Positions 20,147-58,153 of a stretch of 64,000 nt of DNA are shown in pieces. The stretch is taken from contig JAUFOQ010000013.1 of NCBI GenBank assembly GCA_040285855.1, positions 1,984,001 through 2,048,000 on the forward strand. The letters are read 5' to 3'. The position numbers and the translations under genes are program-made. A model generated the notes under the pieces. It did not search any database. It was not told the DNA's origin and worked only from the letters and a program-made list of their open reading frames with translations. The stretch is from Eukaryota sp. GEM-RC1. Its lineage: Eukaryota. The stretch's first letter is position 1. The number at the start of each line of letters is the position of its first letter.

Positions 20147-20362
20147 TTATGTGAATTTACTAATAAAGAATTCAGAGATTTCTACCAAGTGATACCCTCT
20201 TTTCTTTTTTTCAACGAGAATGTTGGTCAATAACATTGGATTCGAGTGACATCTAATCTTCTACTGTCATTCTTCGTCCAGCTTATAAAAACAAATCTTT
20301 ACATTGTGTTATTTATTTTTGTAAGCCTTTTATTTAATCATTCAAATAACGATCATAACAAC

Positions 20363-28002: not shown

Positions 28003-28404
28003 GCTTACGGGGGGGGTTAGTGTACATATTTCAAGTTGAAGTATAATACATTGTTTTATTGTTTGTATGTGCCCAACTTCTAATTCTTTCTATTTACTTT
28101 ATTTTATAAAAAACAACTGTTTATAGATGAAGGTAACAAAAACACACATCATAATAAAAGCTATGAAACACTCGACACTGAAAATTCCTGGTCAACAGTA
28201 CCACAGTTTTTATACAACTGTGTGATAAATGCATTAAAAACTTAGTCCAAGAAAGAAAAAATCAAAAATTCAACGGTTATGCCAAATTGATAAGTTAAAT
28301 CTCCTATTCTGAGACTTACATATAGATCCAAAATCAGTTAAATACTGAGAAGCCATTTCAGCAATACTGTCAAAAATTGAAATAGCAAATGGAACAAATA
28401 CAAA

Positions 28405-30289: not shown

Positions 30290-31115
30290 GATTTATTGAC
30301 AACAACACTACAGTGTACATACATCTAATAATCAATATCCTCAAAGTCCAGATTGCCTATCTGGAAATTTTCACCTACATTATCCTCATAATGTCTGCCA
30401 CGAGATAATAAAGCGCTAGATACAGAAGTCACCATACCTTTAAAGATAACAAACACGATTCGATTTTTCCAAAATCTAAGATCAAAAGCCCTAGATGTTT
30501 TTTCTTTAACAATCTTCACAAATATTTCAAGTAATGATGTTGCAGATTCACCTAAAGAACCGTAGAGTGAAAATACAAAAGGGTACAACAAGTAATACGA
30601 GTGTGAAGTCGAATTCAATAATTTCAATTTAGCACAATATTTTTGCATTTTAAATTTTTCACCAATCAACAAGGGGTTTTTAGTATTAGATTTAGCAAGT
30701 TTCTTGTTGGAATAATTACAAACATCAATAGACATAACATCAGCAATAATGAAAGATCCATCAAGACCAGGAAATAGGACATCAACACCTAGACGGCTAT
30801 TTCCAAACGATTTGTCAACATCTGTGTCATCAAACAAACCAGCCAGAACTGGTTCCAAAAGGAAACTATTCCATAGGATTTACACATACAATATAATTGA
30901 TCCCTTACTGAATCACGAACCTTACTTTTAAAAAGAAATAAAACGGTACAATTCAATAGATGTGTAGGTGTTACAGATTGCCCACATTGGCATTTCAAAT
31001 TATGTGTAAGGTTATCAGGCCAAATATATGACCGTAAACGCATGTTTAATGACCAAGAGTTACCATCAAGAAGAAGACCGTAAACTCGAGGGATTTGAGT
31101 AATCAGACATGAACT
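30290..31115 (-). mobile_element. CRE-like non-LTR 3' fragment
   Basis: Paralog of 5050-5920: CQCG..HLLNC, ADVMSID, FWKNRIVF. Confidence 0.78.
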
Positions 31116-31173
31116 AGAAAATTTAGAATCAATAAACAAATTCAAATCTAGACTAAAAACTACATTCAAGTTA

Positions 31174-33271
31174 TTACAATGAATCCAACAACTCCCTTTT
31201 CTTCTTCAGCGGTGAGTAAACGTCCACTGGAGAACCAAGAAGTCTTAATCCAAGTGCACAAAGAGCAATTGCCACAACTAAACAAACAAAAGGGCTCACA
31301 TTCAACATAGCAAGAAATACAGCTACAAAACAAGCAGCTAATGAAAGGAAAGCATACGGTAATTGTGTCTTAACATGGTTAATTAAAGAACATTTGGCTG
31401 CTGCAGCTGCTACAATAGAAGTATCGGCCAACGGGGAGCTGTGGTTGCCAAACACTGCTCCAGATAGTGTACATCCAACAGCAACCTTTAACAACAAGAG
31501 ATTCCCGGGGTGAGCTTGGTGGGCTAAGGAAATGGAGAATCCCAATAGAATAGAGAGAGTTCCAAATGCTGATCCAACAGATATACCAATGAGTGAAGCA
31601 ACCAAAAAGATTGCCAAAGCCAAAACTAATGGAGAAAATCCTTCAGGGATTTTTGGAAGCAATGAAAGAACCAGTTTGAAGAACATACGTACTAGTACCT
31701 AGACTCCAGGCGCACCACAGATTAAGCAGAGCTCCAGACATATCAGCCCAACCAGCCATCATTGAATCAACTGAATCCTTGTAAGGAATCTTGATCATTG
31801 CCATCAATACAAAACAGGTTAAAGTACCAGCAACCATACCATAAAGAAGGGACGAGTAAACGTCAGTGTAGGTGAAAATAGATGTTGAGTCAATTACGAG
31901 ACCATCAAGTGTTTCCTCAAGTTCACTGACACGTTTAAGGTTTCCTCTTCGTTTTTCAATCAAAATATCTTGTTCTAAGCCACTTCGAACTCCATTGATC
32001 TCTAATACGCCATAAGCAATCATTGAGACAATCACTGTAACCATAATGACAAGAATTGGTAACAAAGCATTCCTAGCTAATTGAGGTGTGTCTTTATCTG
32101 GCACCTTTGCCTTGTTCTCCTCCTCCAATTGATCACCTTTATTACTTACTCCACATCGTCTTGCTTCACGTTCGACCTTTAGCATTGGACCAAAATCTCT
32201 GGCCAGAAGTACATTCAACCAAGGCATAACCGTTGCAACAATGGGGTAAAAGCAATACGGAATTGTTGAAATAAAAAGAGGAAACGGTTCAAGTTCAATT
32301 CCATTGCTCTCAAAATGAGTCTGCAGAGAACTAATGATGAAACCGATCCACGAGGAGACAATGAAGATGGAAGACGGGGGTGAGCCCATACTATCAAGCA
32401 AAAGGCCACCTTTTCAGCAGAAACTCTCATGCTTGTAAGTACTGGCTGCAAAGCTAAACCCTGGAGTTAACTTTCTTGGAAGAAGAACAAACACTGAAAT
32501 GAGATGAAGGAAGAGCAAGCATACCAGCAAAAGATGTTGACGAACTCATCGACAATCAACAAACACATCATGGTCAGCAATCCAAATTGAGAGCTTTTTG
32601 AAGTCTTTGCAACACGTGTGACTATTTTAGCTAAACCTTGACTTCCACCTGATTTACTAATCAAACCAATGACAGCTCCTAAAAAGATGAAAAAGCCAGC
32701 CACTTTGGCATATGAAGGATCTGCAATGGAATTGACAAAGTAATCAAACGTCCATCGGAAGGCAACGACTGGATTAAGTGAACCACAGGAGAGATAACTA
32801 GCGATGAAAACCCCTATAATGAGAGTATGGGTAATGTACTATACCGATTAGCAATGAGGGGACAACTTGTGCTGTGGTAACGGCCAACGTGATTGTAACT
32901 AAGGGAGGGAGCAGTGTGAGGAACCCGGGAAGGATAAAGATCCTTGAACTTATGGTAGAGGGGAACTGGCAGTCAGAACATCTAACCTTCATGTCTTTAA
33001 AGCCTGCTTTGTCGCCTTTGATGTCCTCAAAGGTGACATAAAGCGCAGAATCATGGCAAACATAGTGTGATGCAGAGAGCTTTTCATCATCAATAGACAA
33101 ATCAAAGTTTCCAGTGCCACATTCATCCCCAATTATTTCAAAGTAGAAACGGGCGTTAAAAGTTAATCCGGTAGGAGAAGCAGCAGGATGTTCTACCTTA
33201 GTGAACTCAATGTCAATTGAACACGAACCCAGGGCAATCAGAAGAGCAAGCACCAACAGAGAGTAACACAT
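31174..33271 (-). CDS. NhaC-family Na+/H+ antiporter-like membrane protein with signal peptide and N-terminal extracellular domain (frameshifted)
   Basis: TLLPPLVTITLA, SGGSQGLA, SAEKVAF.LDS, ARDFGPMLKVE, GAVFGNHSSPLADT..HVKTQLPYA. Confidence 0.85.
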
Positions 33272-38052: not shown

Positions 38053-38117
38053 CACAAGATGTGTTTTACAAGATGTGTAATACAAGATGTGTTTTACAAG
38101 ATGTGTAATACAAGATG
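38053..38117. repeat. 14-bp repeat ACAAGATGTG(TTTT/TAAT) overlapping the PIF1 stop codon
   Basis: About 4.5 units; the same unit recurs at 41431-41545. Confidence 0.9.
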
Positions 38118-40607
38118 AAACTATCAAAATTACCTATATTGTCCAATCTTTTCAAAATTAAATATAATTCAAATAAAACACACATACCAGTCTTTTCATC
38201 ATTTTTCAAATACTCTTTCAAAACATGAAACAATTCCACAATCACATCACTACAATAACGTTCATCAACATTATCCTTATTAATCACATCGGTAATGTAA
38301 CAGTTTCTTATTGTTTTCACTTCCATACTTGATGCAGATTCAGATCCAATACAATCTAGTACATTATCGACAATTGACTGAATTCCAATAGTTAAGTCCA
38401 CTCTCAATTGTTTTGAAGTAGCAACACGATTATACTCCAAAATAGGAGACAGTGATGTTGTTTCATAATTCACATTGTCAGTTTGTTGATATTCACATAT
38501 GGAATCACATTTTTCATTTTCAAAGCTTTCAGTCTGAACTTCCTTGAGACAAAATCGTTTTTCATCATCAATAAGAGGAAACACTTGGGAACTTGTTCTT
38601 TCTATACCAGCACTGACATTCTTTTTTAATAATAAAATCTTCGTTGGTAAAGAGGTTTTCTTCAAACGGGGAAGTGATGGTAGAATACTTTTGCTTCGTG
38701 GTAACTGAGGAAGTTTAGACTTATTGACACCAATCTCTGGGGAATTTTTGTTAAAAATTGAGTCACAATTAATAAATTTGGGATGAATATTAGTTTCATC
38801 TTCTTCATCATTTACCACAAAATCATCTAAACTTGTTGAAATTGTATCACTGTCAGATTCATCACCAGAATCGGATCCTGATAGTAGTGCTTCTGTTTCA
38901 AATAAATTTGATTTGTCTAAATGATTTTTGTCCAAGTCAATAATTTGATTATCATTATTTTCAATAATTTGTTCATCAACATTATCAACAACAACTTCAT
39001 CAACAACTTCATCAACACAATGAACATCTTCAGGAACAACAGCATCATCCATAATTGGGTCACTCGATTCTGCACAAAAGTTTGCAAACAATGAATTAAA
39101 ATGATTGAAATCTCGTTGAAGACAATGTTGATTTCCCAAAACATACAAATCAATAGTGGATGGCTTAACAGGATGAAAAGTTGAATAACACCATTGATGC
39201 AATTCCAAATTTGGTACTGGATAACTTCTTCCAATGCTTAAAATCTTTAAACTCCTCCAAGACCTAACCCTACTTAAGGTCACATAATGTTGGGCATATT
39301 CCCAAAACTGGATAGCAACTTCAATCCCGTCAATTGTTAAACCTTGGGATCGATGCACTGTTATCGCCCAGCAAGGTCTTAGCGGAAACTGAATTCTTTT
39401 CGCCACTTGAACAGGTCTTCCGATTTCGTTCAAGTGTTCGATAGCAAACCTTGACTGACTGATTCTTTTCGGTTCTGCTTCAGCGTTGAACCGAACATCA
39501 ATATATGTATCTGAAAAATTAACAATAACTCCTTTTGAACCATTAACTAGTCCAAGTTCAGGTTTATTTTGAGTGTACATCACTTGTCCACCAACAACAC
39601 AGTCAAGTTTTTTTTCAGCAAAGTCATCTAAACGATTTTTCAGCACAGAAGTTTCAATGTCATAATATTTTTCCAAATTAGATTCATTGACCGGAAATCT
39701 AGAACTTCTTTTTCTAATTTGAGATTTTAATTCAGATTCATTGAATTTGTCAACAGCTACAAATTCAATTGAATCTGAATTTTTGCCCGAATTTTGAATT
39801 GTTTTAAATTTTCTCTAGCAACATCAGTATTCTTTCCGTATAAAATTGTTGGTTTTCAACAGATTCTGCTGTTTCGAAATGATTACGCAGAATTGATTTC
39901 ATAAAATTATCAAAAAGACCCAATCTCAATTGATTTAGAAAATTAAATTGGGAATCTGATTGCTGTCGAATACTACCAGCCAGTTCACAATATCTAAAAT
40001 TTAAATTGTTCCAAGCTCTTGATGAAAAAGCGAAATCAGAAATTACCACTTTTCGATTTCCTTTTCCATCAAGACTTTTCACAACAGGGGTTAATTGAAG
40101 AAAGTCCCCAAAACAAATTATCTGAATTCCTCCAAATGGTTTCTTCGGGGAGTGACATTTTTGCGTGTGCATAAGTTCGCCCAAAATGTCACTCGCCCGT
40201 TGAAACAAATTGGAGGACAACATTGAAATTTCATCAATGATTAACATTGAATTTTTTGGAGTAATTTTTTTTAACAATGATTTGACATTTGATGGCATAC
40301 ATTTAATAACATCATGTATGGATTCTTCTTCTTTCATAAACTTATAACCAAACAGTGAGTGTATGGTCTGTCCACCAAAAACAGTTGAGGCAACCCCAGT
40401 TGTTGCAGTGAAGAAGATTTCACCATTAGCACGCATGAGACGAGATCCGACGTTACTCCACCAGTATTTGAGAGCATGCAAAAGATAAGATTTTCCTGAT
40501 CCTGCACCACCAGTGACAAAGAAGTTGTGTCTGCTGGTAGTGATTGCGTTAAAGATCTCACGTTGGTCATCTGTGAGATTGATGTTGTGTATAGTGGTTG
40601 GTGCCAT
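38066..40607 (-). CDS. PIF1-family SF1B helicase with long acidic C-terminal tail (frameshift near 39810)
   Basis: GGAGSGKS, ATTGVAS, IIDEISM, FGGIQIICFGDFLQLTPV, QFPLRPCWAITVHRSQGLT, YVTLSRV. Confidence 0.93.
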
Positions 40608-41430
40608 TGAGTTGATGGATTGTTTGAGCGCAGGGAAACTTGGTCTTCATCAAATTTCTCTTTCACTTCAAACTATGACTTTATCCTTGAAATGGGACTG
40701 TATTTCAATGGATCCGACGAGTTCAATATAATCTCACATTTCCGCAGTTCGCGACTTCAAGTCCTTTTATATTGATTCTGTGAACATTTGTCCTTCCATA
40801 CGATTCATATGCAAGCATTTTCTATATCACACCAGTAGTAGTGATGCAGGATGTGTGTTTGTATGTTTATATGTATCATCTCTGACTTCTTTTTGTAATA
40901 GTAAACTTCGTTTTAACATCTATGTCTTCTTGTTTATAGATCAAATCTTACTTTCAAACCAGTATGATATTACTCAGCGACATTACTCAGCGACTAACTA
41001 ATACATCTAGCACCGTCTTCCAATAGAATCAACACAAAATGTTAAAAGAGGAAAAGAGGGAATGTGTTTCCGATAAGTTTGGCGAGAAGTGTAAAGCAGT
41101 GGATTGACCAAACAATAAAGAGTACGCGTAAGTCTGTTTGACTGGGATTAGAATTGTGATGTCTTGATGTTATCATAGAAAAGATATGCAACGACGATAC
41201 GCAAACGAGACACTAGCTGTTTATTACACAAGAAGGAGAATCAAAGACCAAGGGGTAACAATATGGCATTTAACATGTGTATCGGGTGTATGTCTTCAGC
41301 AAATGTCACTAGCCTTCAGTTTGGGGAGTCACATAACTCTAAAAGAACGAGAAGTAACAGAGTGTGGCTTCGTTGTGGATATGAGTTTGGATGAAGAAAA
41401 TGTGGATGTAGATACAAGACTGGATGTGTA

Positions 41431-41545
41431 ACACAAGATGTGTTTTACAACATTTGTAACACAAGATGTGTTTTACAAGATGTGTTTTACAAGATGTGTA
41501 ATACAAGATGTGTAATACAAGATGTGTAATACAAGATTTGTAACA
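41431..41545. repeat. 14-bp repeat ACAAGATGTG(TTTT/TAAT), about 8 units
   Basis: Read directly; lies just downstream of the stop of ORF 41554(-). Confidence 0.9.
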
Positions 41546-42376: not shown

Positions 42377-43018
42377 ATGAACTCATCAACAAACGTTTTG
42401 TCTCGGAAACGTCGTCTTTCTGCTTATCAGAGGAAGTATGCATCTAAACATCAAGATGTATACAATGTCTTTTCTTTTACTGAGACAAAATCAACTCCTT
42501 CAACTTCACCTTGCAATCTCGGAATCAATGGAGATTATATCTTAATCACCCGAGCTGCTGATAGTACTTCTCATATCGCAGTGTCCACCAACAATACAAC
42601 ATGGTTTAAAAATGTTGTTGGTGATAATCTTAAGGAAAACATTGAATTCTTTATTAACAAAGAAACTCATATTCTTGAAGAAAAGACTGGTACCACTAAT
42701 TCCTTGTCATCTCAAAATTTATATAATGTTTTGATTCAAGATCAATCTGACTCAGCAATAGACTTGTCTGATTTTGCAGAACATGAACAACATCAAAAAG
42801 TTTCATGTTCTGCAAGACTTTCTAAGATGAAGAAGTCTAAATGTCCAAAGGCTGTTAGAGAAGAAAACTTATTGAATGAAAAAGAAGAATCAAGTAACTC
42901 AAGCAATGACTTAGAGTCAGAATCAACTGGAACAACTGAGATTACTTCGACTCCACTCCCTCCTCTTAAGTCTCTTGTCAAAAAATCCAATTTTACGAAG
43001 AGTCCTTTTGAACTTTAG
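42377..43018 (+). CDS. hypothetical Ser/Thr/Lys-rich protein with NLS-like RKRR
   Basis: 213-codon ORF divergent from 42333(-); no recognised motif. Confidence 0.5.
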   Translation: MNSSTNVLSRKRRLSAYQRKYASKHQDVYNVFSFTETKSTPSTSPCNLGINGDYILITRAADSTSHIAVSTNNTTWFKNVVGDNLKENIEFFINKETHILEEKTGTTNSLSSQNLYNVLIQDQSDSAIDLSDFAEHEQHQKVSCSARLSKMKKSKCPKAVREENLLNEKEESSNSSNDLESESTGTTEITSTPLPPLKSLVKKSNFTKSPFEL

Positions 43019-43390
43019 ATATATCTTCCCTTCATTATGTACATGAAAGAAACCATCATATACAATAAAGATTTTCTGACCATATAGTGAAAAAAAGTGA
43101 GAAGAGATGTTGGTTGTTGACAAACACGACATGTTGAAGATGAAATTGTATTTCAATTCTAGACTTTTTCTTCACACCAATTATGCGTATGAATCAAGTA
43201 TAATTCTAATTTCAGACTATGTGATGCCAAAAGTAAGTTTTGGTGACGATCAGTGCTTACTCTTACATCGGTTCCAGTTGCTCAGAGAGTTCCTGAACAG
43301 ATTGCTATCTTCCGGCTTTGTTCCGCCGCTAATGTATGTTCATCTCTAACCGCAGATAACCTCTCAACCCCTTTCTCTCTGATTGTATAT

Positions 43391-43458
43391 CCTTCCCCAA
43401 AACAACAAATAGGGATAACATTCTCGTTAACAAGAGTCATGCCTTGAAAGTGTTGGTT
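43391..43458 (+). repeat. single diverged copy of the CTCGTTAACAAGAGT hairpin unit
   Basis: TAGGGATAACATTCTCGTTAACAAGAGTCATGCCTTGAA aligns with the 120-bp array unit. Confidence 0.85.
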
Positions 43459-44360
43459 CTTCTCTCGTTGTTGCTACAATTTCTCCTCTCCATGTCAATA
43501 CGCTCATTATTACCAGTCTCCTCCTTCTTCTTCAAAACATCAACCTGTAAAGACAAAGTTATTCACCGCAGTAGCTGTAAAATCAACAGTGATACTTAAA
43601 TCAATAATAGTTGTCCTTAACAATAGAACTTTACAAAACGTAATTAACTGAGCTTGAGATCCAATATTTGTTTGATGACTCTTGATGACTCTTGGAGTAG
43701 AGAGAGGAAAGAACCAAAGAGCAAACGTTGATGTTGAGGATAAACTTTTTCGTTCACTTGTTCAGCAAGTACTTTTGGGGTCGTTCGCAAATCGCTGACA
43801 TCTATCCTGTTTTTGCCTCTTACTCACTCGTTCCTTTATTAGTCTAATCCTGTATTAGTTATTGTAATACATTAATCCACGTGAATGACAAATTCAACAT
43901 GGAATGAATAAACCAAACTTTTTTGCTCAAGATAGTCCCAATCAATAAACCATTTGTATAATATTTTTAATTTTTATTGTAATGTATCCCTTGATGTTCA
44001 GTGATAACAATCTGTTATAAATAAATATATTCTCACAGCCGAATGCTGGCTGTATAATGGTCATACAGCCAGGAATCGGCTGTGAAAATTGCAAATGACT
44101 TCCATAAGAAATCAAATAGCTTAAAATATGTAGCAAAATGTACTGATTCTTTAAATGTATATGAAATCAATCAATCAAAATCACATAAAATTTGAAAACT
44201 ATTTAATAAATAGTTAACCTTAACCAGTGGTCTCTTAATCGTCTCACACTAAAGCAACAACCATACAGTTGTTTATAACACGTAAAGAAGAATTCGTGAT
44301 GAAAAAGTTGTCACTTGAAGTATCAAATTGTTTCACATATATTTCCTCAAAATGCAATTC

Positions 44361-44921
44361 CCTCCCCCAAAGTCAGCAATTAGGGATACCATGCTCGTTA
44401 ACAAGAGTCATGCATTGAACTATTGTTGTTTTTGGTGTTTTGCTTCCGTCGTTGAAACTGATGACTTTCTGCTCACGCCTCCTCCCCCAAAGTCAGCAAT
44501 TAGGGATACCATGCTCGTTAACAAGAGTCATGCATTGAACTATTGTTGTTTTTGGTGTTTTGCTTCCGTCGTTGAAACTGATGACTTTCTGCTCACGCCT
44601 CCTCCCCCAAAGTCAGCAATTAGGGATACCATGCTCGTTAACAAGAGTCATGCATTGAACTATTGTTGTTTTTGGTGTTTTGCTTCCGTCGTTGAAACTG
44701 ATGACTTTCTGCTCACGCCTCCTCCCCCAAAGTCAGCAATTAGGGATACCATGCTCGTTAACAAGAGTCATGCATTGAACTATTGTTGTTTTTGGTGTTT
44801 TGCTTCCGTCGTTGAAACTGATGACTTTCTGCTCACGCCTCCTCCCCCAAAGTCAGCAATTAGGGATACCATGCTCGTTAACAAGAGTCATGCATTGAAC
44901 TATTGTTGTTTTTGGTGTTTT
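44361..44921 (+). repeat. tandem array 1: 120-bp unit x4.7
   Basis: Identical units at 44361, 44481, 44601, 44721 and 44841 (partial); open frame gives 40-aa repeats with LVNKSHA..YCCFWCF. Confidence 0.97.
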
Positions 44922-45359
44922 CCTCCCCCTGATGTCCTCTCCAGGTTGTTGCATAAGAAGACCCCTGATGCTTATTCGATGGATACACCTACTAAAGGTA
45001 TCTCAGTCATGGCTGCATCTGGGATCCATGGGTGACTTGGCGCTAGGGCCAGACAAAGGTTCCTTTCCTCGCGATCCCCCCAGATGTCCAGCTAAGCACC
45101 ACGCATCGCGTCATGCTGCTCCAATATCTTGGATTCTACAGTTTTCTGCACAAAAACGTTTGACAATTGATAAACAATGTTCAAGTTACGCCATTTGTAA
45201 TCAATGTATGCTCCCCCGACAGCCTGGTATACTTCCACAACAGCATGATTCGACCAGGCCCGTCCAATGCTGTTTAACCGCTCATACTCTTGATTTCTCG
45301 AAATTCATTCGCGTTGTAAATCCTGCCTGTTGTCTTTCGTTAACAACAATGTTGACGAT

Positions 45360-46414
45360 AGCACTAACACTGTGTCATCAGTATTTGCAAAGATCTAAAT
45401 TTTTTAAAGATACCTTTCCAACGCCAGATTCTCTTTCCCCATTCACAGTCGATTCAGCAAGAGAAGTAAAAACTTGGCTGCGAGAACTGACCCCACCAAA
45501 ACATTTTACCAAAAATTACATGGAAAAACTACTCAATGAAATTGTAGAATATGCTGAAGCTGCCGATGGCCAAGCTGTTCTTTCCAGAACAAACAACTGA
45601 CGAAGCTGATGAATATGAACAAGTACAGGATTTTAATAATACATCTATTGATATGTCTGTAAGAATTGAAAACTATGCTTCCCGATTACTCAATGTTGAT
45701 GCAAAGTTACAAGATACCTGGATGTTTCGATCACTCTATCGCTTTTATGTCTTTGCCAAGACATATTTATTTTCAAATGAAACTGATCAAGAGAATTACC
45801 GAAATCAACAAATTTCTTCAATTTATTTGTTGGTATTTATGCTAGGTTATCAAAGTTACATTATTTCCACTTCAGAATTTGAAAATTGTTTTGAACCCTT
45901 TGTAAATCTAATGAACTTCCCATTTGTTTTCATTAGCTATATATTCAATGGAACAACACACGAAGAAGTTGTTGAACAAGCAATTAAAGATGCTTTGAAA
46001 TATAAGACAGAGAAAGCCAAAGTTATTGATTTATTACAAGATGTTGAAGAAACACCCGAAGATCTTACGGAAATTCTCCTTGATGTTAGTAGCTGCTGAT
46101 GATACTAAACCAATTGATGTAATGTCACTCAAAGTGCTTACAATTTCACAATGCACCAGTTCAACACGAAACCAAACTCGGTATTGTTTGCTAATTGGGG
46201 AATTTTGGAAAAATTTTCCGAATTTAGGTGTCAGATATCAATTATTATTGATCTTCCAGACACGCCAACAACATTTCCTTTTATTCAACAAAGAACTGAA
46301 AACGCACTGTTTGTTATCATGGATAACAAACAACCCCAAAGCAAAAAGTGGAATACTTTCCACGCGTTTTTGAGGCAAAATCTTACAGATGTGGAATACA
46401 AAATGAGGGAATAG
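45360..46414 (+). CDS. hypothetical protein, frameshifted; C-terminus weakly resembles a degenerate SF2 helicase C-terminal domain
   Basis: Overlapping ORFs 44932-45600, 45551-46099, 46026-46373, 46151-46414; SVLFANW..IIIDLP..FIQQR. Start uncertain. Confidence 0.4.
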
Positions 46415-46724
46415 TCTTTATTCATTTTTTCGTTCTTTATAAATTGTTTCGTTCTTAGTTTTTATGGTTAATTCTACACCTCAGACAGTGACTTACTTGA
46501 TCTTATTTATATGTTTTCTTGCCAATTTTTCGATTTACAAGTCTTTGTATTTTACATATATCCAAAACATAATATGTTTGGACATACACATTACTGATTA
46601 GATTTAATATTGTATTCCATTAAAATCAAGCAAAATGAATATTTTGAAATCTTTTGATTTTGAACATAAACCTATAATTCAGTCAATTATAACTTGCATA
46701 CAAGAATACATTATCGTTTATTAT

Positions 46725-47296
46725 TCACTCTTTTGCTGCTCTAACAGGAATTCTAGTACTACTTCGTCGATCATTTCTATTTTCAGGTAGATTATCAAGA
46801 AACGGAAAAAAGATATCTACCAGTTTAATTCGATATCTCATGTCCACCACCTCTTGTTCATCTTGACTAGAATCATCTTGACTAGAATCTTCTTCACTAA
46901 CGTCTATTTCATCTTCACTGTCAATGACAATAACTTCATCTTCATCATCATTTTCATCTTCATTTTGAATATCAGATACCAAAGTTCTCCCCTGGATTAG
47001 TGAGTTAGCATTATCCACTGTAATCCATCCACAAATACATGAATTTGTCGGTTGCAGATGAGGAATAGAATACTTCACAGAATACGATGGCAATTTACAA
47101 AAAACGGTTGAACAATTAAAGATTGATAATTTTGATAATGCAGTGAATCGTAAATATTGAAATTGAACTTATTATTTTCGTTTGACAATTCAACCAAGAA
47201 CCAATGTCCATAAGTCTTTCTTTTTGAACCCTTTGGAACATTTTCACTGTATGAGTCCAAACAAATCGGGATTAAAATTTTGACACTCAATGACAT
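46725..47296 (-). CDS. Ulp1/C48-like protease domain with acidic tail (frameshift near 47090)
   Basis: ILIPIC..GHWFLV..IYDSL then QPTNSCICG, followed by a SIM-like EVIVIDSEDE. Confidence 0.6.
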
Positions 47297-47576
47297 TTAT
47301 GAGAAGTGTTTTTACAACTCTGAGAAGAACTGACAACCAGTATTACTTAAACGCAGAGGAGTAGATCGGGTATAGATTCTATATTTCTGTGAATAAAAAG
47401 ACTGTCTACACTTGCTGTTTATGAGCTAAATTAATCACCCAATAAGACCATAAGATAATTCCGACATAGCACTGTATGAGAATATGGTGACATTGTCATT
47501 GACCTAGACAAGTGACATCAAAGTCTTGTATAGTACGAAAAGTCTTGATTCATTTCTATCTACTGTACTGTTGGAT

Positions 47577-50500
47577 ATGTCAACAGTTCCTCTTCTCCCT
47601 ACTAACAGAACAGATTCTCCTCTTTGTGCCAATCCTTGCCCAATGAGCTACGTACCCATACTCGTTAACAAGAGTTATGCAGTTTGTAGTTGTTGTTGTG
47701 GTTCTGCTCTCGCCGCTACTAGTACAGATTCTCCTCTTTGTGCCAATCCTTGCCCAATGAGCTACGTACCCATACTCGTTAACAAGAGTTATGCAGTTTG
47801 TAGTTGTTGTTGTGGTTCTGCTCTCGCCGCTACTAGTACAGATTCTCCTCTTTGTGCCAATCCTTGCCCAATGAGCTACGTACCCATACTCGTTAACAAG
47901 AGTTATGCAGTTTGTAGTTGTTGTTGTGGTTCTGCTCTCGCCGCTACTAGTACAGATTCTCCTCTTTGTGCCAATCCTTGCCCAATGAGCTACGTACCCA
48001 TAATCGTTAACAAGAGTTATGCAGTTTGTAGTTGTTGTTGTGGTTCTGCTCTCGCCGCTACTAGTACAGATTCTCCTCTTTGTGCCAATCCTTGCCCAAT
48101 GAGCTACGTACCCATACTCGTTAACAAGAGTTATGCAGTTTGTAGTTGTTGTTGTGGTTCTGCTCTCGCCGCTACTAGTACAGATTCTCCTCTTTGTGCC
48201 AATCCTTGCCCAATGAGCTACGTACCCATACTCGTTAACAAGAGTTATGCAGTTTGTAGTTGTTGTTGTGGTTCTCCCTCGCGAAGTGTTTTAGACCTCT
48301 CTTGTACATTTTTCTCATCCCGTCCCCCATTCAAAAAAGATCTCACCATGGATGGTGACGTGGAATCCAATCCAGGGCCAGTTTCTCAACAAGCTTTAGA
48401 TTGTTTGCAACCTGATCATTTGGTAGATGATGAAGTCTTTGTTGAGTTTTCTAGATCCATATTTCAAACATATTTCGAACTACAAGCATGTAGTGTAGAT
48501 TTCGATGATCTTTTTATTCAACCTGCTCTTTTAAAGGGACATAATCTTTTTCCTGATTTATCGTTAGATGTTTTTTCAATGACAAAGTCAATGTCACTAA
48601 GGCAAAAGGATACAACTATCTCATAATCCCACTAAATAATTCCATGACAGAACCGGCCAATGATGGAACACACTGGGGGCTAGTTATTGTCGATTGTGTG
48701 CGTTTGGAAGGTATATTTATTGATCCACAGTGTGATTGAGATTCTTCAATAGAATCTTCGTCTTTGAAACAGATATTCAATATAGTTCAAACAACTTTTG
48801 GAACTTATAATCTCAAACCAATTCCTGTTGCAACCAAGCAAACTTTAAACGACGGTGTAATTTATGTCCTAAAATATATAGAGAAATTTATTGAACTTTT
48901 GTCACAATTACGATCAATCCCTGGGCTGTATTTGGAATCCAAATTGCTTGAAATAGCCAACATAAACACTGTAGAAGTTCGCCAAGAGATTCAGAACCGT
49001 TTGAGTCGATCAGAGACTAAACCCAAAAAAGTTGTTTCTGATGAGACTTTGACCTCTGTGGAACCGAATAACTGGGTCGATGATGAAGTTATACGACTAT
49101 ATTGTAAGAAATTATTTGAAATTTATGGTCTAGGTTACGATTGGACTTCTTTTATCCCCCCTTCAGTGATGAAGTATTACATCACTAGTCACAATCTGTT
49201 ATCTTTTCTATATGATAAAATTCACGAATGTTTAAATCGAGGCAACAGATTTCTTATTGCTCCCTTGAATGATGGATTTACAGAACCAGCACAATCTGGT
49301 ATTCATTGGGGTTTGATTATCATTGATTGTCAAATCAGGAACTGGATGTTTATTGACCCATATTACGATACTGGTGATTTTGCACAGGATGGAAATATTA
49401 TCAAGACTTCTCTGCTGACAAATGTCCTTTCTATAGTAGTATCAGTTCTTAGCATTCTTGAATTCGAACCAATTGTTTTTCCTGTTACGCGAAAGCAGAC
49501 GCCCAATGATTGTGGAATCTATGTTATAGAGTATATTCACCAATTTTTGAACATTCAAAATGAACTTCCAAGCCTGTCTCATGCTGAAGCGTCGTTGCTT
49601 AATATGGAAATTGATGCTCTTGCTGTTCGAAACGAAATCTACTCGTATCTTGAATCACTTAATCCACCAGAGGAAGAGGAAGAAGAGACTGAGGAAGAAG
49701 AAGAAGAAGAGTCTGAAGAAGAAGAACAGCTAATGTCCAAAGAATCGTCTATTAGGTTAACAGACCTACCACCAAAATTGCAAGAATCTATTTCTTTATA
49801 TCCACCGTCAATGCAAAAGGATATACTTATCATGGAAGAAAGTCTACACACTGAACCTGTAAAAGAAGTTGTTTCTGTAGACACCTTAGTCTCCTCATCT
49901 AAAAAAGAACTACATAAACCTCAAAAAGTGGAATTACTCCTCCATTTAAGAAATCGAATCTATCAGAATTAACAGAAACAGAAGAAATCCCAACATTTTG
50001 TTTAATTGATTTTAAAACAATGATTACTGATGCAAAACGACTTAATCCAAGAATTCTCAAATCACCTAAAACTGTATTGCCTAAAAAAAGTGTCGACTCT
50101 GATGATATTGAAGATGACTCTGAGGAACCAGAGGATGCTGATATACCTAAAATCAAAGAAGAAGTTGAAGCATCGAGAGCAGAACTGTTTGCAAATCCTT
50201 TGGATAAAGAAGACAAAATAATCTTTATCAGTCTCAAATTTATCTATGCTAATTTCACTTCAACTGTTATTTTTAGTAAAAGAACATAAACAATACATTT
50301 GAAAATGTCGAAATAATTGTTTGTGCTTCAGAAGAAGCCATGATTGGGGAACTTATCCAAGTTTTATGCCAAACAAAACCCAGATTGTTGATTGGTTATA
50401 ACACTGATGAACTTTTGTTTCCTTTTTGATTAAACGGTGTGAAATGTTCAAGATTCAGACAAATTTTCATTTAGATAATCCATACAGACCCTACGTACCC

Positions 50501-53442
50501 AACTGGTTTCATAGATGGTGTAAGCTTTGCAATTTTGGACCTTTTGTTTCTCTAGACTTGGCAAATGTTACAAAGTCTACTTATGTCTTCAAAGGTGGTA
50601 GAAGTTTGGAAAATGTTTGTTCAAAGTTGTTTCGTAGACACGTACCGAATTTAATTTTGTCGTCATTAGAATTAACTACGTACTTCACAGAATTTCGAAA
50701 AGTACCAGGCATAACTGTTAACAAGGAAATAGAGAAAGAGTTTAACCTACTCGCACACAACAAGCAAACCTTCAAATTGTGGACTGATAATGCAAAAGTA
50801 ATTACTCTGGTTGAAGATTTACTTCAACGAATTGACTGTTTATCTGAATTACATGAATATTTCTTTGATGAAGAAACTCAACATGTTCTAGAGCGCCATC
50901 CAATTAAAGTGGTGAAAAAGGGACTGGAGAAAGTTATTAAAGATCAGGATAATATTGTCTTAATTAAAGACTGTGTTATCCGAAATCAAAGAGCAACAGT
51001 AAGGGGTTCTAATTTTTTGAAACATCTCCTTATGTGTGAGTTTGAAACACGTGGATGTGAATTAAATTTGATGAATCCTCATTACTTTCGTCCATATCTC
51101 CTAGAATCTTCTGTTTCGGAATCAAAAGAACGAGATTTAATGTACGAACATGATTTTTTTGAGAAACGACTTCGTGAAATGAAGTTAATGTACGAACATG
51201 ATTTTTTTGAGGAACGACTTCGTGAAATGGAGTTAATGAATGAACATGATTTAGATTCGTATCCATCAGAACTTTCTGATTTGTTGGCATTAAATGATCG
51301 TAAATTAATGAAGAGCCATGATACAATGCCTGATTCTGATGATGCATCTGTTTCTGATCCGTTAGAACCTTCTGATTTACCCCTCTACACTAAGTTTTCC
51401 GTAGTCTTACCAGATTTGGAAAAAACTGCTTAAACACGATTCTATTAGACAAGTATTGAGACGGATGTATGTGAAGAAATAAACTGGTTCTTCAATTACA
51501 AAGTCAGAACTAGAAATGTCAAGAGCAGAGGCTCAAAAAGTGATTGACGATTTCCAAAAATCTTCAAGACTAGAAATGAACGAAAAAGAAAAAATTGCAT
51601 TTCACTACTTGAACAACTTTTCTCCACTTCTACAACAGTTGTCTGATGAAATTGGAACAAATCAAATTTCATTTCCTGATTCTACGTCAATGTCTCCCAT
51701 ATTTCATTACACTGCCAAACAAATTTCTACAAATTATGCAAACAATATGGTCAAAAATTTTCATGATTATGTATTCAGATTCTTTAATCTGGTAACAAGA
51801 AAGAAGGTCAGACTTGAACAAATCAATGATCAAGTTAGTAAGAAAAAATTGATTTCGAAATTGAATTCAGTCAGAGATTCGATTATCAATGGAAATTTTG
51901 ATGACATTCCAATTGAAGATCACGAGATTTTCCCTAATCAACGTGAAGAACTAACGTTGAGGTTTTTTGCGTATTTAAAATTTTCTTTGTTTCCAATGTT
52001 TTCAAAAAGAACATTTACTATTTACAGAAAGCAAAGCCGACAGAGTTAATTTCTCATGCTCTGTACATCAACCGAACAATACAATCTTTGTGTTTGGTTG
52101 ATGGAAAACCAATCAGTGTAAACAACCCTTTTCCAATGACGAAGACATTGATTCCTCAGCATATTCGTTTGGACACAGGTTGGATGAATGATAGATTTGT
52201 TCATATACGTGGCAAAAATGCAGATGAAATAAGAAAAAAGGTCTTTGATCAGGTCCTTACTGACAAAGCTGTGGCACCAACAAAATCATTTGTCTTTAGA
52301 TATTCTTCAATTCTGACTGATGGAATTTCTTGTTGTTTGGTTTTAATGAGGAAAGATTTAGTTGATGAAGATGGAAATACTTTCAAAGATTTTACTGCTA
52401 AATCTCTCGGAACTTCGGAAAGATACATTCACTCTTTATCAAATGAGAATATTCACGAATTACAATTGAAAGAAAAAAAGAATTGTCGGTGTCGATCCCA
52501 ATGAATATGATTTAATGTATTGTGTTTCAGAAAAGACAGTCGATGAGCTTAAAGAAGAAGATATTTCTGAAAATAATCCACTCAAAAAACGATTACCCTT
52601 AGAAATCAGAAGTAAGAAAAGAGGAGGAATTAAGAAAAGAAAGAAACAGTTACAAGATTGGAAAAATTCGAATAATGATGTAAAAATCAAAGAAAAAGAC
52701 TAAGCACAAATGGAAGAAGTTTAATTACACAGCGGGAGAAAGAGCTTATGATAGGAAATCTAAAAAATATCGTAAATCTGAAAATAGAAAACTGAAAGAA
52801 TTTTCTATCGAATCACCAGACGAAACTGTCACTGAAAGACAACTTAAAGATTTTTTGGTTCTCCACCCTGATAGAATTCTTGTAACAGGAAGAGATGTCG
52901 TTAACCAATTCTCCAATGCTGTATCAAACGGGGAAAGAAAGTCGTGTTTCAGTGACACATTTGAAACATATATTAAAGAAGCTGAACGATATAACGTATA
53001 TTTGAGTTCTTTCTACGAAGATGACTGGTTTAGAAAGAGGAAATTCCAAATTTATTCTAATAACCAACGTTCGGAGAAAAACATGCTAGAACGCTTCAAT
53101 TTAACATATGGACCTCCAGAAGACGTCGTCATTGGCTATGGGGATTGGAGCTCAAAAGGTAAAACAAGAAAGTCTCTGTCTCTCGAGAGATCTAAAACTC
53201 AAACAACAGATCTCGAGAGTGGTAAGGATACTTTGGCGAGAGACCAGAAGAAGAAGAAGACTGCGACCAAGAAGGAGAAAACTTCAACAGGAAAGGCTCG
53301 TAAGAAACCAACATGTGGAAATTGTGGCCAAGAAGGTCATAACAAAACGTCATGCAAGAATCCACCAAAAGAAATGAGTTCGCCTAAAAGAAGAAGCGTA
53401 AAGTCAGTCAAGAAGAAGAAGCTCTCTCGTAAAGGACTTTAG
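47577..53442 (+). CDS. inferred polyprotein: Cys-rich repeats - 2A - Ulp1 x2 - PolB exonuclease-like - Fanzor1-like - CCHC; disrupted in this sequence
   Basis: Abutting same-strand ORFs whose breaks fall inside or between domains, mostly at A/T homopolymers; two in-frame stops (TGA 48737, TAA 51480). Continuity is inferred. Confidence 0.6.
47610..48275 (+). repeat. tandem array 2: 114-bp unit x5.8
   Basis: Units at 47610, 47724, 47838, 47952, 48066 and 48180 (partial); one C-to-A variant at 48003; 38-aa repeats with LVNKSYA.CSCCCG. Confidence 0.97.
48339..48380 (+). other. 2A / StopGo ribosomal skipping peptide
   Basis: DLTMDGDVESNPGP matches D(V/I)ExNPGP exactly, in frame between the repeats and the first protease domain. 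Confidence 0.9.
48390..49650 (+). CDS. tandem Ulp1/C48 (SUMO/NEDD8-protease-like) domains; the first lacks the catalytic Cys
   Basis: Domain 1: LVDDEV, IIPLNN, GTHWGLVIVD, FIDP, KQTLNDGV. Domain 2: WVDDEVI, IAPLND, GIHWGLIIID, FIDP, KQTPNDCGIYV. Confidence 0.85.
49990..50860 (+). CDS. family-B DNA polymerase 3'-5' exonuclease-like domain, probably inactive
   Basis: IPTFCLIDFKT, DKIIFIS, SEEAMIGEL, PRLLIGYNTDELLFPFLIKRC, SLDL..RSLENVCSKL; the Exo I E, Exo II D and Exo III YxxxD are not canonical. Confidence 0.65.
50900..53442 (+). CDS. Fanzor1-like (eukaryotic TnpB homologue), C-terminally altered
   Basis: FLKHLL, HYTAKQISTNYANNM..FHDYVFRFFN, PFPM..IPQHIRLDT, ILTDGISC, RuvC-I IVGVDPN (Asp 52494-96), FNYT..ER, RKRKFQIY..QRSE, VVIGYGDWS; no RuvC-II/III before the stop. 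Confidence 0.85.
51138..51250 (+). repeat. 48-bp in-frame repeat, about 2.3 copies (LMYEHDFFE.RLREM.)
   Basis: Read directly; inserted in the Fanzor N-terminal region. Confidence 0.85.
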
Positions 53443-53495
53443 TGTACTTTTAACGGTACACAGTGCAGTGGGCTTAGCTCACTGGGTGTCTGTGG
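53442..53495 (+). ncRNA. candidate omegaRNA scaffold (continues at 57691-57700 beyond the LTR element)
   Basis: Hairpins GTGTAC/GTACAC, CAGTGGGC/GCTCACTG and, after removing the insertion, GTGTC/GATAC directly 3' of the Fanzor ORF. Function inferred from position only. Confidence 0.4.
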
Positions 53496-53595
53496 TGTTA
53501 GGTCAATAATGACGTGTAATTATGACCTATGCCTTTTTATAGAATTGTACTTTAATAAACCTATCTTCACCATCGTTTTACGCGTAGAAGCAACA
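53496..53595 (+). repeat. 5' LTR
   Basis: TGTTAGG...GCAACA, identical to 57587-57686. Confidence 0.97.
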
Positions 53596-53625
53596 GTGAT
53601 CACTGACGCTATTAGTCACTGAACC

Positions 53626-54381
53626 ATGGACCGCCCTAGAACCACCCCCATCCTCAAAGGACTTACCTCAGACCAAGTACAACAATATCTTGATGATTTC
53701 AAGATCGCCCAGAAGAACGATGACTCTCTCTCCCTGAGAGATGGAATCCCAGACACCATCTTGGAAGGCATTTACCTTCTAAAGCCTCTGGCCGACCCTG
53801 ACTCTGAAGAAGACCCACACGAGGGATTTGTCTCTGCCGAAGAAGAGCTGAAGGGTTTCTTCGAGAGCCGTCAAGCGATACCCAGTCTCCGTTCCCTTGT
53901 CTCATCTCTAGCAAACTTAAGACCTGATTTCAAAGAAAGAGATACGGAGGCAAGATACCTCGCGTTCGCCGCAAAGTTTCAGAGATTGAGGAAGAGAGCC
54001 AGTCACCTCAACCTTGACCTCCCATGGTGGATGAATCAATTTGCCGAGAAGGTTCGTCCCACCAGGATTGCCGAAGACTTCGTAGAACGCATTAAAGCCG
54101 GTTCCATCCCCTCGATGACTATTCTGCTACAAGAAGTCATTGATGAATGCAGCGCTTTTGAACGACTTGATGGGTACCGCACGCCCAACAAACCTTCGTC
54201 CCGCAACCACCATAGCACCCAGTCCCTCACGACCAGTGGAACTCCCAAAGCCCTCACCAAACTCACGGACAAAGAAAGAACCGAGCTCTCTCGATCTGGT
54301 TCCTGCTTTAGATGTAGACAGAAGGGTCACGTGGCTGCGATGTGCCCTCTCGCTGTGAAAAAAAGAAATAAACGCTATTAA
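53626..54381 (+). CDS. gag: Gag with CCHC nucleocapsid knuckle
   Basis: CFRCRQKGHVAAMC. Confidence 0.9.
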   Translation: MDRPRTTPILKGLTSDQVQQYLDDFKIAQKNDDSLSLRDGIPDTILEGIYLLKPLADPDSEEDPHEGFVSAEEELKGFFESRQAIPSLRSLVSSLANLRPDFKERDTEARYLAFAAKFQRLRKRASHLNLDLPWWMNQFAEKVRPTRIAEDFVERIKAGSIPSMTILLQEVIDECSAFERLDGYRTPNKPSSRNHHSTQSLTTSGTPKALTKLTDKERTELSRSGSCFRCRQKGHVAAMCPLAVKKRNKRY

Positions 54382-57300
54382 CTATGAAAGCCCCCCAATC
54401 CCTCCTATCCTAATCCCTGTACTCATAAAGGAAGAAGAAATTCAAGCCTTTGTGGACCCCGGATCAGACTGCAGCCTCATCCACTCAGACTTAGTGAAGA
54501 GACTACAACTCCCCCTCTTTTTTCACCAAAGTACAACTGAAAGGAATCCACGGCACCTGCAGAACCTCCTCTGGTACATCCCAAGTTCAATTTGAACTAC
54601 TCGAACCACATAATCTGATCTCCACAGCCAAGTTCATCGTCTATGACACGGCTTACCCTATAATCTTAGGCCGTGAAATTCTTCACGATCTAGGACTTCT
54701 GTCGGAAAAAGGTCTATTCTTGCATCTTAAAGGCAAAGAGGACTTTTCAGACGATGACTTAGAACCCGAAGTACCAGATCCCTGTCAGCCAAACCCTTGG
54801 AACAAGGACGATGACCCTAACGAAGTATCCAAAATCAGAGTACAACTAAATCCCTCTCAAGCATCACAGATATACTCTCTGCTACAACACCATGTCGAAG
54901 TCTTTGATACTAAGCCTCATCCCGATGGTCTAGACTGCCCAGATTTCGAAATCCCCTTCCTAGACGAGACCAAAACTACCAAAGCAAGACCTAGGCCCAT
55001 GAAACCCAGGCAACTCGAATTAGCCAAATCACTTATGAAGGAACATGTCGACTCTGGTGTCGCAAGAGTTGTTAGCGAACCCCGGTTTAGTAGTCCCGTA
55101 GTTCTCAAAGAATATGCTGATAAGAAACCACGACTTTGTGGCGACTACAAGAAGATCAATGAACTGAGCATCACCCACGCTGCTGAAATTCCACGAATTA
55201 CTGACATTATCCAAAAGATAGCGAACGCCACCTATGTAGCCGTCTTCGACCTAAGACGGGCTTTCTACCAACTTAAAGTGAGCCCGAGAGATGTGGAGAA
55301 AACTACTATCTCTGTACCAGGCCTAAGCATTCAATACCTCAGAGCGCCTTTCGGATTAAAAAATGTTCCGGGATACTTTCAAGACCGTCTTGGGTCAATC
55401 TTCAACACTGACTACTCCGACATCTACATCGATGACCTCATCGTTTTTGGAACCGACTTTGAGAGGTTCAAACAGAGCCTCGACAAGACCCTCGGAAAAG
55501 TCAAAAGCATCAGAGCTCGCCTGGCCGCCCCAAAAGCTGTGATCTCAGATTGCTCTCACAAATTCACACTTTTAGGGTTCACATTCCTTAACCAAACGAA
55601 ATCTATCAGTGAGGACAAACTCAAGCCCATAAGAAACGCCACATACCCCGCCACCATCAAACACCTACGCTCCTTCCTCGGGGCAACAAACTATCTAAGA
55701 GAATTCATTCCCAATTTTGCAGACATCACGAGGCCCTTATACGACCTACTACAGAAAGGAGCCAAATTCATATTCTCAAAGAGCCACAAAGAATCGTTTG
55801 ACGTCTTGAAGCACCACGTCATTAACTCAGTCCCTCTCCAGCTGCCGACAGAAACTCAGAAAGTTATTGTGACGACAGATGCTTCCGATTCTCGCCATCG
55901 GAGGTGTGATCTGGGCCGACAATACAGCCGACGAAAATAGTCCCCTTGACAAAAAGAACTTAGTCCCTTTGTGTTTTTACTCAAAGAAATTGAACAAGAC
56001 GCAGACAGCCTGGTCCACGAACAAGAAAGAGTTGTTCGCCATAGTTTCTACCCTGTGTCTCTCAAGCCTATCCAACTTCCTGATCTCTCATCCTTTCACA
56101 CTTTACACCGATCATCGCAACCTTGTCCATCTCCACACAACAGAATCTCCCATGATCTCCCGATGGAGACCCCTACTCAGCCAATTCTCTTTCAAGATCG
56201 TCCACACACCTGGAAAAATAAACTCCATGGCTGACTTCTTGTCGAGAAAACCCGACCACCTTCTTCCACACAGAGAAGTCCTAACCACCGAATCACCAGT
56301 TAACAAGACCTCCGACAACATAGTGTCGCACCTGATCAAAACAGTTCACTCTAATGGACACCTAAGCCAGGAACGCACCCTCAACCACCTGAAAACTTTG
56401 GGCTTCAGTGCCCCTAACCTCAAAGACTGGGTCAACGACATTGTTTCCAACTGCGGAACATGTCAAAAGGCGTCAAACATCCCAAGAAAGACACCAGCCC
56501 ACACAGGCTCCCTGGGATCATCAATGCCCTTCGAAAGCCTCCATCTAGACTGCATAACTTTACCAAAAGACGCTAAAGGATTTAAACATGTACTAGTAAT
56601 AGTTGATGGCTTCTCGAAATTCACTTTCTTAACACCTTTGAAGAATCTCTCAGCGGAAGCAACATGTGATATCCTCACTTCTAAAGTGTTCAGCATTTTT
56701 GGACTTCCTCTACAAGTCCACTCAGATGGAGGAAAGGAATTCGCAAACAACCTGGTCAAAAACCTCCTCTTGAAACTAGGAATCCAACAGACCTTTTTCT
56801 TTCCCCAACCACAGCCCATCAAACGGGCTAGTAGAACGAGTTAACCAAGAAGTTGTCAAACTTACACGAAAACTGTCCACTGACACTGCTAATCATACAG
56901 ATTGGAGTGATAAAATCCCTCTCATCCAGCTCATTCTCAACTCAGAACCCTCTTCCACTACCAAGTTGTCACCATATTCCTTATTATTTGGTAGACACAT
57001 TAAGCCTAGACGTAACCTACTCGATGTACTACTGTCCAGAAATGACACCACAGACAAAACCTCAAACACTCATTCCTTCGTTGATCAGATATCCAAAGAA
57101 ACCCTTAAGCTTACTTCTGAAGCTATCAGTCGAAAGAGGAAAACCGTTGATGCCACCCCAAATGAATTTCTAGTCGGTGACCTGGTACTCCTCGACGATG
57201 CTCCGAACAAACTGTTGAACTTACTAGGACCGTTTCAAGTGACCAAGAAACATGGCAACTCCGGTTACGAGATCGAATCAATAGTAGCTGACAAGAAGAG

Positions 57301-57592
57301 GACTGTGTCAGCATATGATTTACACTCCTTCTCCCCCAACATCCTTGACGAAAACGCCAAAAGACTTGCTGCTTCAGACTATGATGAACATCTTGTCAAC
57401 CAAGTTATTGACCACGACCCAAAGAACGAATGGTTTCTGGTCAGGTTTTCAAATGGAGTTGAAGCTTGGCAACCACTGGACAACCTCAGAGATGGCAGCA
57501 AGATCAATTGTTACCTACAAGACTACTGCCTAAAGCACAAACTAAACCTCACCCCTAGAAAGAGGGGAAGGAAGGGGAAGAAGCAATGTTAG
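54382..57592 (+). CDS. pol: Pol (protease, RT, RNase H, integrase, chromodomain), frameshifted
   Basis: AFVDPGSD, RLCGDYKKIN, PFGLKN, YIDD, TDAS, YTDHRNL, H..H..CGTC, HSDGGKEF, VNQVIDH..FLVRF..WQPLDNL. Confidence 0.93.
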
Positions 57593-57686
57593 GTCAATAA
57601 TGACGTGTAATTATGACCTATGCCTTTTTATAGAATTGTACTTTAATAAACCTATCTTCACCATCGTTTTACGCGTAGAAGCAACA
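57587..57686 (+). repeat. 3' LTR
   Basis: Identical to the 5' LTR. Confidence 0.97.
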
Positions 57687-58153
57687 GTGGTTTCGATACT
57701 CTAATCAAAATGAAAATTAACAAAGTTGTGTACTTTGGGAATATCCATTTGAGTTGAGAACCACATACGTTTTTATTGTTGGAGTACAAGACAAGTTATG
57801 TTGTGATCTTACCATGTTGGTCTAGACTCTAGATCCATCAAGAACTTCTACCGAACAATAACACAAACCACGAAATCGTAGTACTATATAGTAGTTCCTC
57901 AAAGTATTTGAATCGATTGCTGGACGAACAATATTAGAACTACTATGGGGTATTCTACAATGTTACACCACCAGCTGCCCAGTCATTGCTTTAAAGACAT
58001 TGGAATTCAATGTCCTTAAATCAATGACTTTACAGTTGATGTTTTGTATATTACAATCTTTTCTCGATCTTTTCTGGTCCTGGTTTCTATCCGAAATATA
58101 TATAAACTGGTTGTCTACTTCTCAACCTATGATGACGTGATGAAAACTGACTG

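Follow-up and report, generated by a model that had tools for sequence, protein, structure and literature searches.

The 2A peptides published so far are those of RNA viruses and retroelements, besides a few in cellular genes. The class A 2A (StopGo) motif 4 (PMC12846837) combines the core D[VI]ExNPGP with an upstream DLTxDG hexapeptide and an aromatic residue at position -16, and a representative of this DLTxDG class gave almost 100% StopGo in vitro (PMC12846837). For a picornavirus entry with a 14-mer identical to ours the activity is given as 'N/A' (PMC12338488 supplement), and many 2A-like motifs of retroelements have low or no activity (PMC3708506). In non-LTR elements (L1Tc, Ingi, CR1, Crack, L2; PMC3708506, PMC3894237) the 2A lies near the N-terminus of a single long ORF, ahead of a nuclease-bearing polyprotein, and protease domains are sometimes carried too (bioRxiv 2026.06.17.732966). 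Fanzor1 nucleases (SpuFz1 8gkh; GtFz1 9cer; PMC3627910, PMC10432273) are multi-copy and have a RuvC triad with the Glu just before a zinc finger. Polintons carry as cargo an Ulp1-like protease, the same C48 protease that is found in our locus. NeSL, MULE and Helitron elements with Ulp1 are known as well.

The locus described here lies in a stretch of 64,000 nt (the window), which also holds RICTOR-like and CPSF-like eukaryotic genes. Its predicted 2A has the class A core, hexapeptide and aromatic -16, but stands in a DNA-type mobile gene of a protist instead of an RNA virus and has F in place of the usual W at -16. Like the non-LTR 2As it comes early in one long ORF of a mobile element, but its gene has no RT or APE, continues into Fanzor1 and starts with leaders that are tandem arrays exchanged between copies. 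With known Fanzor1 loci the family shares the RuvC arrangement, the multi-copy state, a 3' flank with predicted hairpins, Ty3 insertions as in Spu-1 and, as far as Pfam shows, the lack of a transposase in the locus. It differs from them in having an N-terminal 2A, a PolB-type exonuclease and (in Eukaryota sp. GEM-RC1) Ulp1 in the same gene, of about 1300 aa in TZLM3-RCL and an estimated 1900 aa here, and no terminal inverted repeats were found. Unlike the elements that carry Ulp1, neither the 2A gene nor the ORFs of the block outside Ty3 have a capsid, integrase, full polymerase, RT or HUH domain according to Pfam.

We consider it probable that the 2A heads a multi-copy skoliomonad Fanzor1 gene (leader, 2A, Ulp1, PolB-type exonuclease, Fanzor1) and sheds a variable leader, which would give the predicted nuclease polyprotein a constant N-terminal proline. 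Judged from sequence, what is new is a predicted Fanzor1 polyprotein with an exonuclease domain, optional Ulp1 and exchangeable leaders, placed behind a real, conserved 2A motif, a setting that we did not find described. No 2A, exonuclease or Ulp1 fused to Fanzor was found in the literature searched (including the accessible text of PMC10711439, PMC10530073 and bioRxiv 2026.09.24.754024); supplements of Fanzor papers, Repbase and subscription journals may hold such fusions. The word 'exonuclease' is absent from the main text of the Fanzor papers searched, the searched part of the PMC12338488 supplement has no Skoliomonas entry, and the accessible supplement files of PMC13405545 (the PMC copy of bioRxiv 2026.06.17.732966) gave 0 matches.

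The 2A motif and its conservation

The motif DLTMDGDVESNPGP is encoded at 48339-48380 on the plus strand (GAT CTC ACC ATG GAT GGT GAC GTG GAA TCC AAT CCA GGG CCA). Its core, D(V/I)ExNPG/P, is that of class A StopGo, and the DLTMDG hexapeptide upstream corresponds to motif 4 (DLTxDG) of the known class A contexts. D[VI]ExNPGP occurs only once in a six-frame scan of the window, the chance expectation from six-frame residue frequencies being 3e-5 per window. The 2A is in frame with the first ATG (47577) of the ORF 47508-48626, which runs through the 114-nt repeats of the leader (Table 1), and the N-terminal box of Ulp1 domain A begins 6 residues after G/P; in an alignment, the second Ulp1 domain opens with residues homologous to those after G/P. 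A canonical 2A motif, in frame and at a domain boundary, as the earlier note had described it, is thereby confirmed. The frame of the window copy breaks about 63 codons downstream of the motif. In P0028, P0041 and P0058 the 2A is continuous with both of the coding regions that it separates.

A search of the representative library gave 25 matches without a profile; with cluster look-ups and one further search the set grew to 76 proteins, of which seven distant, non-family proteins were set aside, leaving 69 family proteins (P-numbered). The 2A is present in 21 of the 69 (19 from Eukaryota sp. GEM-RC1 and 2 from TZLM3-RCL), all counted on gene models rather than DNA and not independent of each other; the family proteins without it are mostly downstream fragments. 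In the alignment of 21 2A sequences, which includes the window and from which P0012 was dropped as too short, nine positions (L, T, G, D, E, N, P, G, P) are invariant in all sequences and variation is seen at -10, -9, -6 and -4. F stands at -16 in 20 of the 21, and an aromatic residue at this position is found in 16 of 26 viral 2A contexts. P0044 carries F for S within the core and lacks part of the sequence upstream. Eighteen of the 20 proteins that have the Ulp1 N-terminal box carry the 2A directly before it; the other two, P0014 and P0076, form one cluster, and in P0076 the box follows another Ulp1 stretch. The RCL 2A shows changes of the conserved core at -13, -9 and -4 only, and the RCL proteins have no Ulp1 after it and are about 30-40% identical downstream. 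Loss of the motif from sibling copies would have spoken against the earlier proposal; since it is conserved in siblings and in a second species, the proposal passes this test at the level of sequence.

The nearest named relatives of the window proteins come from Eukaryota sp. GEM-RC1 (87-98% identical) and from TZLM3-RCL. Both belong to Skoliomonas, a group of metamonads that live freely and whose genomes, assembled from Nanopore reads, are rich in repeats (PMC11316075). The host is therefore probably of skoliomonad type. P0015, P0074, P0004 and P0076 of GEM-RC1 make up a more distant subfamily with several Ulp1 domains; the same 2A class is present in P0015 and P0074, behind leaders that are not repeats. 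A metagenome scan with the Ulp1 domain gave 125 candidates and 0 relatives, and one with the exonuclease-Fanzor alignment gave three distant Fanzor loci, none matching the 2A or the exonuclease. Viral scans for the family returned no locus, and none of 39 viral loci with the same 2A class has a family domain.

Architecture and state of the gene

In the homologues the domain order is leader, 2A, one or two Ulp1 domains, PolB-type 3'-5' exonuclease domain and Fanzor1. P0028 (1098 aa) and P0041 (997 aa) hold in a single chain the leader, the 2A, Ulp1 (two domains and one, respectively), the linker, PF03104 and the first Fanzor-like residues. P0068 (1182 aa) extends from the exonuclease domain to the zinc finger of Fanzor, whose end is covered by P0046, and the four proteins map in order onto 47577-53442 of the window. 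No GEM-RC1 protein among those fetched runs from 2A to RuvC-III in one chain; we infer the full GEM-RC1 order from the overlap of P0028/P0041 with P0068/P0046. Six GEM-RC1 models of the exonuclease region share one downstream Met start, which may be a natural break.

Table 1. Coordinates of the 2A gene and of related or neighbouring features in the window
Feature	Positions	Strand	Remarks
Single decayed leader-type monomer	43390..43458	+	exact 15-mer common to both arrays
Paralogous leader-type array	44361..44921	+	4.7 x 120 nt, one open frame, no 2A after it
Variable leader ORF	47577..48311	+	ATG 47577; 5.9 x 114-nt (38-aa) tandem repeats at 47610-48282
2A/StopGo peptide, ~22 aa (...PPFKKDLTMDGDVESNPG, then P)	48312..48380	+	core 48339-48380; DLTxDG class
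Ulp1/C48 domain A	48381..49020	+	46% to domain B over 56 aa; 93% to P0044 over 165 aa
Ulp1/C48 domain B	49031..49663	+	PF02902 E 1.8e-5; His, Asp, Gln, Cys present
Acidic low-complexity linker	49664..49938	+	
PolB-family 3'-5' exonuclease domain	49939..50620	+	over three frames; 49-59% to P0068 (PF03104 E 6e-10)
Fanzor1 coding region, frameshifted	50890..53442	+	93-96% to P0046 (PF07282 E 1.9e-7); 55-66% to P0068
Candidate omegaRNA scaffold, first part (putative)	53440..53495	+	hairpins resume at ~57691-57745 beyond Ty3
Nested Ty3/Gypsy LTR retrotransposon	53496..57686	+	identical LTRs, GTGG target duplication; separate from the 2A gene

The RCL protein P0058 is one chain of 1303 aa, made of a 76-aa leader ending in NLTIHGDIEKNPG before P, the exonuclease and Fanzor1, with no Ulp1. 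It matches PF03104 (E 1.7e-15), DNA polymerase delta (E 3.9e-6) and SpuFz1 8gkh (E 7.8e-13), and its exonuclease (DxE, FD, YxxxD) and Fanzor (DPN, DEYRTS, RDLN) motifs are intact. Because P0058 joins 2A, exonuclease and Fanzor1 without Ulp1, the 2A belongs to the exonuclease-Fanzor gene. As far as the gene models go, Ulp1 is a lineage-specific module right behind the 2A, which the GEM-RC1 branch has and the RCL copy lacks. In the RCL cluster the 2A is found in 2 of 12 members, and four others start with a different 12-aa N-terminus just after the 2A position. All the DEDDy motifs (ExoI DxE, ExoII D, ExoIII YxxxD) are present in RCL P0058, P0055 and P0049, and all three RuvC motifs (D, E and D, the Glu being closely followed by a C4 zinc finger) in P0058, P0055 and P0056. 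An AlphaFold model of the RCL protein was uninformative (pLDDT 34).

In the window itself, Ulp1/C48 at 48740-49972 is the one Pfam match that the 2A gene gives from the window alone. Domain B has the C48 triad and the oxyanion Gln; domain A keeps His and Asp and has Gly in place of the catalytic Cys, likewise in its sibling P0044. The ExoI Glu and ExoII Asp are lost from the exonuclease domain, and catalytic residues are also lost in all six GEM-RC1 proteins checked. Searched directly in PDB, the Fanzor fragments of the window gave E 0.11-0.32 at best, or no match. Behind RuvC-III the Fanzor ORF ends in a basic tail that contains a CCHC zinc knuckle (53179-53442), as in the sibling P0046.

The copy has about eight frame switches, one of them near 48570, and in-frame stops at 48737 (TGA, 48737-48739) and near 51480; siblings P0044 and P0012 are uninterrupted both at the 48570 switch and at the TGA. 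An intron at 48570-48601 would restore the frame; we prefer a frame break, since these two siblings encode the intervening residues. Each of the eight switches has a run of 5-7 identical bases within 25 nt, and runs of 6 or more lie at four of the eight, compared with 14% of random windows. These homopolymer runs, together with the frame breaks in a Ty3 element whose LTRs are identical, suggest that some of the switches may be sequencing errors. The Ty3 insertion and the deletion of about 132 codons between 53172 and 53179 are not of that kind. The deletion takes out DEYRTS, RDLN and the zinc finger (P0046 residues 220-351), leaving only the DPN of RuvC-I from the RuvC triad. Most likely, the window copy is dead. 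The earlier note had the motif separate a leader from a protease; it does sit between them, but the protease is only the front of an Ulp1-exonuclease-Fanzor1 gene, here in a broken copy.

The same note had placed the motif in a block with no RT or capsid gene. There is an RT 6 kb downstream, which belongs to the separate nested Ty3 element; within the 2A gene no RT with APE or RLE domain follows the motif. Polinton/Maverick genes (protein-primed PolB, integrase, packaging ATPase, capsid) are absent from the 38 ORFs except for the Ty3 integrase, Pfam being able to miss divergent capsids, and the block has no transposase Pfam match. The Ty3 element is young and sits inside the candidate Fanzor omegaRNA, and its pol has frame breaks. 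Folding of the candidate hairpins gives z -1.5 for 53440-53495 alone and z -0.8 to -2.7 for windows that span the empty site (-2.7 being the best of 16 windows). Eight comparisons in search of terminal repeats gave no convincing match, with one score of 34 against a shuffle maximum of 32.

On the opposite strand, 7 kb upstream, is a Pif1 gene, with no Rep match in Pfam that would point to a Helitron. This helicase gene is split (38066-40646, minus strand) and has the same 14-nt tandem array on both sides (38054-38117, 41423-41545), and gene and arrays are possibly a separate mobile unit. A MULE transposase with SWIM and zinc knuckle at 16690-18195 (minus strand) is a candidate for a transposase acting in trans. 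A repeat of about 1.4 kb or more is present in three copies 92-99% alike, one of them inverted (1-1190, 20336-21827, 28330-29935). Two fragments, 30325-31205 (minus strand) and 5060-5939, are 90% identical and have no Pfam match; presumably they resemble the C-terminal end of RLE-type non-LTR elements.

Leaders and reassortment at the motif

Leaders across the family are of several unrelated types. Repeats are found in 12 of 22 sequences, with units of 27, 27, 33, 38, 38 and 42 aa and some 2 to 6 copies each, and the other 10 have no detectable leader repeat; the RCL leader has none in its 76 aa. In the window, each 114-nt (38-codon) repeat holds an in-frame Met, the leader is stop-free in the frame of the 2A and the unit is a multiple of 3, which has a rough chance of 0.006, a biased figure since this was the reason that the leader was noticed. 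The open frame and the unit lengths divisible by 3 suggest that the leader is probably translated, from which a function of the peptide does not follow.

The earlier note had also proposed a metal-binding or lipidated repeat peptide. Cys clusters occur in three leader types, and the repeat unit of P0011 can be matched to that of the window without a change of frame. The idea is weakened by the 33-aa repeat leader of P0006, P0028 and P0044, which is homologous to the window leader and lacks the SCCC cluster, and the Cys fraction of leaders long enough to measure varies from 0.02 to 0.15. A single-sequence AlphaFold model of the leader was uninformative (pLDDT 37).

Two further leader-type sites lie upstream in the window, one an array and the other a decayed monomer. 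The 15-nt core of the three monomer sites is identical at all five third positions, and the changes flanking it are spread over codon positions, which fits constraint at the level of DNA as well as of protein. No 2A follows either of the upstream sites (a degenerate one after the 120-nt array was rejected, its score not being above background), and the ORFs at 44899-46411 after this array have no family match. The idea that unrelated leaders have a DNA motif in common but translate it in different frames is unsupported, P0003, P0010 and P0019 falling within shuffles. The repeat unit folds no better than shuffled sequences (z -0.35 to -1.39), and Rfam gave two chance-level matches on 43000-49000, with no ribozyme or snRNA.

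With P0012 and the two RCL proteins excluded, 19 sequences give 171 pairs, whose mean identity is 25% in the leader (40 aa), 85% in the 2A 15-mer and 37% in the part downstream. Among 29 pairs with the same leader just 4 share the downstream type, and 4 of 22 pairs with the same downstream type share the leader. The window and P0003 are 20% alike before the 2A and 96% after it, P0003 and P0018 97% before and 13% after, and leader and downstream similarities are weakly correlated (Mantel r 0.14, p 0.056). From this mismatch it follows that copies exchange 5' ends at or near the 2A, and the protein after G/P stays defined as they do so. The suggestion that a 2A lets the leader change copy number without altering the downstream protein finds support here, since the number of repeats varies (about 2 to 6) and leaders are swapped as a whole.

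Probable function of the motif and its meaning

According to the scheme that we favour, the ribosome would start at an AUG in the leader, drop the leader-2A peptide at G/P and continue, and the product would begin with Pro whatever the leader; the 5' arrays could therefore expand or be swapped at no cost. The leader itself would be mostly a by-product of amplified or exchanged 5' DNA. The element would be a non-autonomous DNA transposon, whose predicted Fanzor would cut empty sites for homing with a guide RNA that, by analogy with characterised Fanzors and TnpB (PMC10432273, PMC13565253), would be encoded 3'. In intact copies the exonuclease, to go by its family, would trim the cut ends, and the Ulp1 domain, by the same reasoning, would remove SUMO or ubiquitin-like marks. 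A bolder version, possible though on the whole doubtful, is that the skoliomonad Fanzor1 is built like a viral polyprotein: with a working 2A the 5' end could be exchanged freely, and the protein set free would be an RNA-guided cut-and-trim enzyme (Fanzor and an active 3'-5' exonuclease, with SUMO-type proteases in one lineage) that spreads the element by homing without a transposase of its own.

An active 2A might instead act mainly in dosage control, stalling or termination at G/P keeping a genotoxic nuclease scarce and leader shedding being secondary. Such a role has been proposed for the 2As of single-ORF non-LTR elements (PMC3894237, PMC3708506), half of the retrotransposon 2A-like peptides tested fall in a protein-reduction class (bioRxiv 2026.06.17.732966), and the RCL leader, short and repeat-free, needs no insulation from an array. 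However, the DLTxDG representative skipped almost completely in vitro (PMC12846837), reduction is tied to leucine-rich upstream tracts (bioRxiv 2026.06.17.732966) that this 2A family lacks, and reassortment of leaders at the motif would be left unexplained. We regard dosage control as the main role as unlikely; it is compatible with leader shedding.

Still less likely, the leader peptides, once released, could have a job of their own (as metal-binding, lipidated, toxic or anti-silencing peptides) and be deliberately diversified. The stop-free window leader, with the biased chance estimate given above, the single open frame kept by the 120-nt array as well and the Cys clusters with their matching P0011 unit speak for this, and against it are the homologous unit without a Cys cluster, the several unrelated leader types, the 10 of 22 sequences without a detectable repeat, and the changes in and around the 15-nt core, which suit constraint on DNA equally well. 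We find it just as hard to believe that the 2A survives, with no function, from the 5' end (2A plus protease) of a retroelement that was captured, and is alike among copies only as a shared recombination point. NeSL elements do encode Ulp1. LINE ORF2 proteins with 2A and deubiquitinase domains are also known (bioRxiv 2026.06.17.732966), crossovers cluster at the motif, and P0044 has its altered core and upstream deletion; yet an RT or APE domain is reported in no family protein scanned, and the RCL copies, about 30-40% identical downstream, retain the 2A without Ulp1 and with only three core changes.

Shedding of the leader by the 2A thus remains our preferred reading. A conserved 2A in the gene of a predicted RNA-guided DNA nuclease would bring StopGo into metamonads and into a new kind of element and, if true, it would be the first use of StopGo in a DNA-type element within the literature searched. 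With the same 2A, many leaders and measurable reassortment, the family is a natural experiment from which one could learn why a 2A is kept at the N-terminus of such elements. Finally, the intact RCL protein is a test case for the role of Fanzors in eukaryotes and for whether a built-in proofreading-type exonuclease alters the outcome of repair, a question that matters for compact genome editors.
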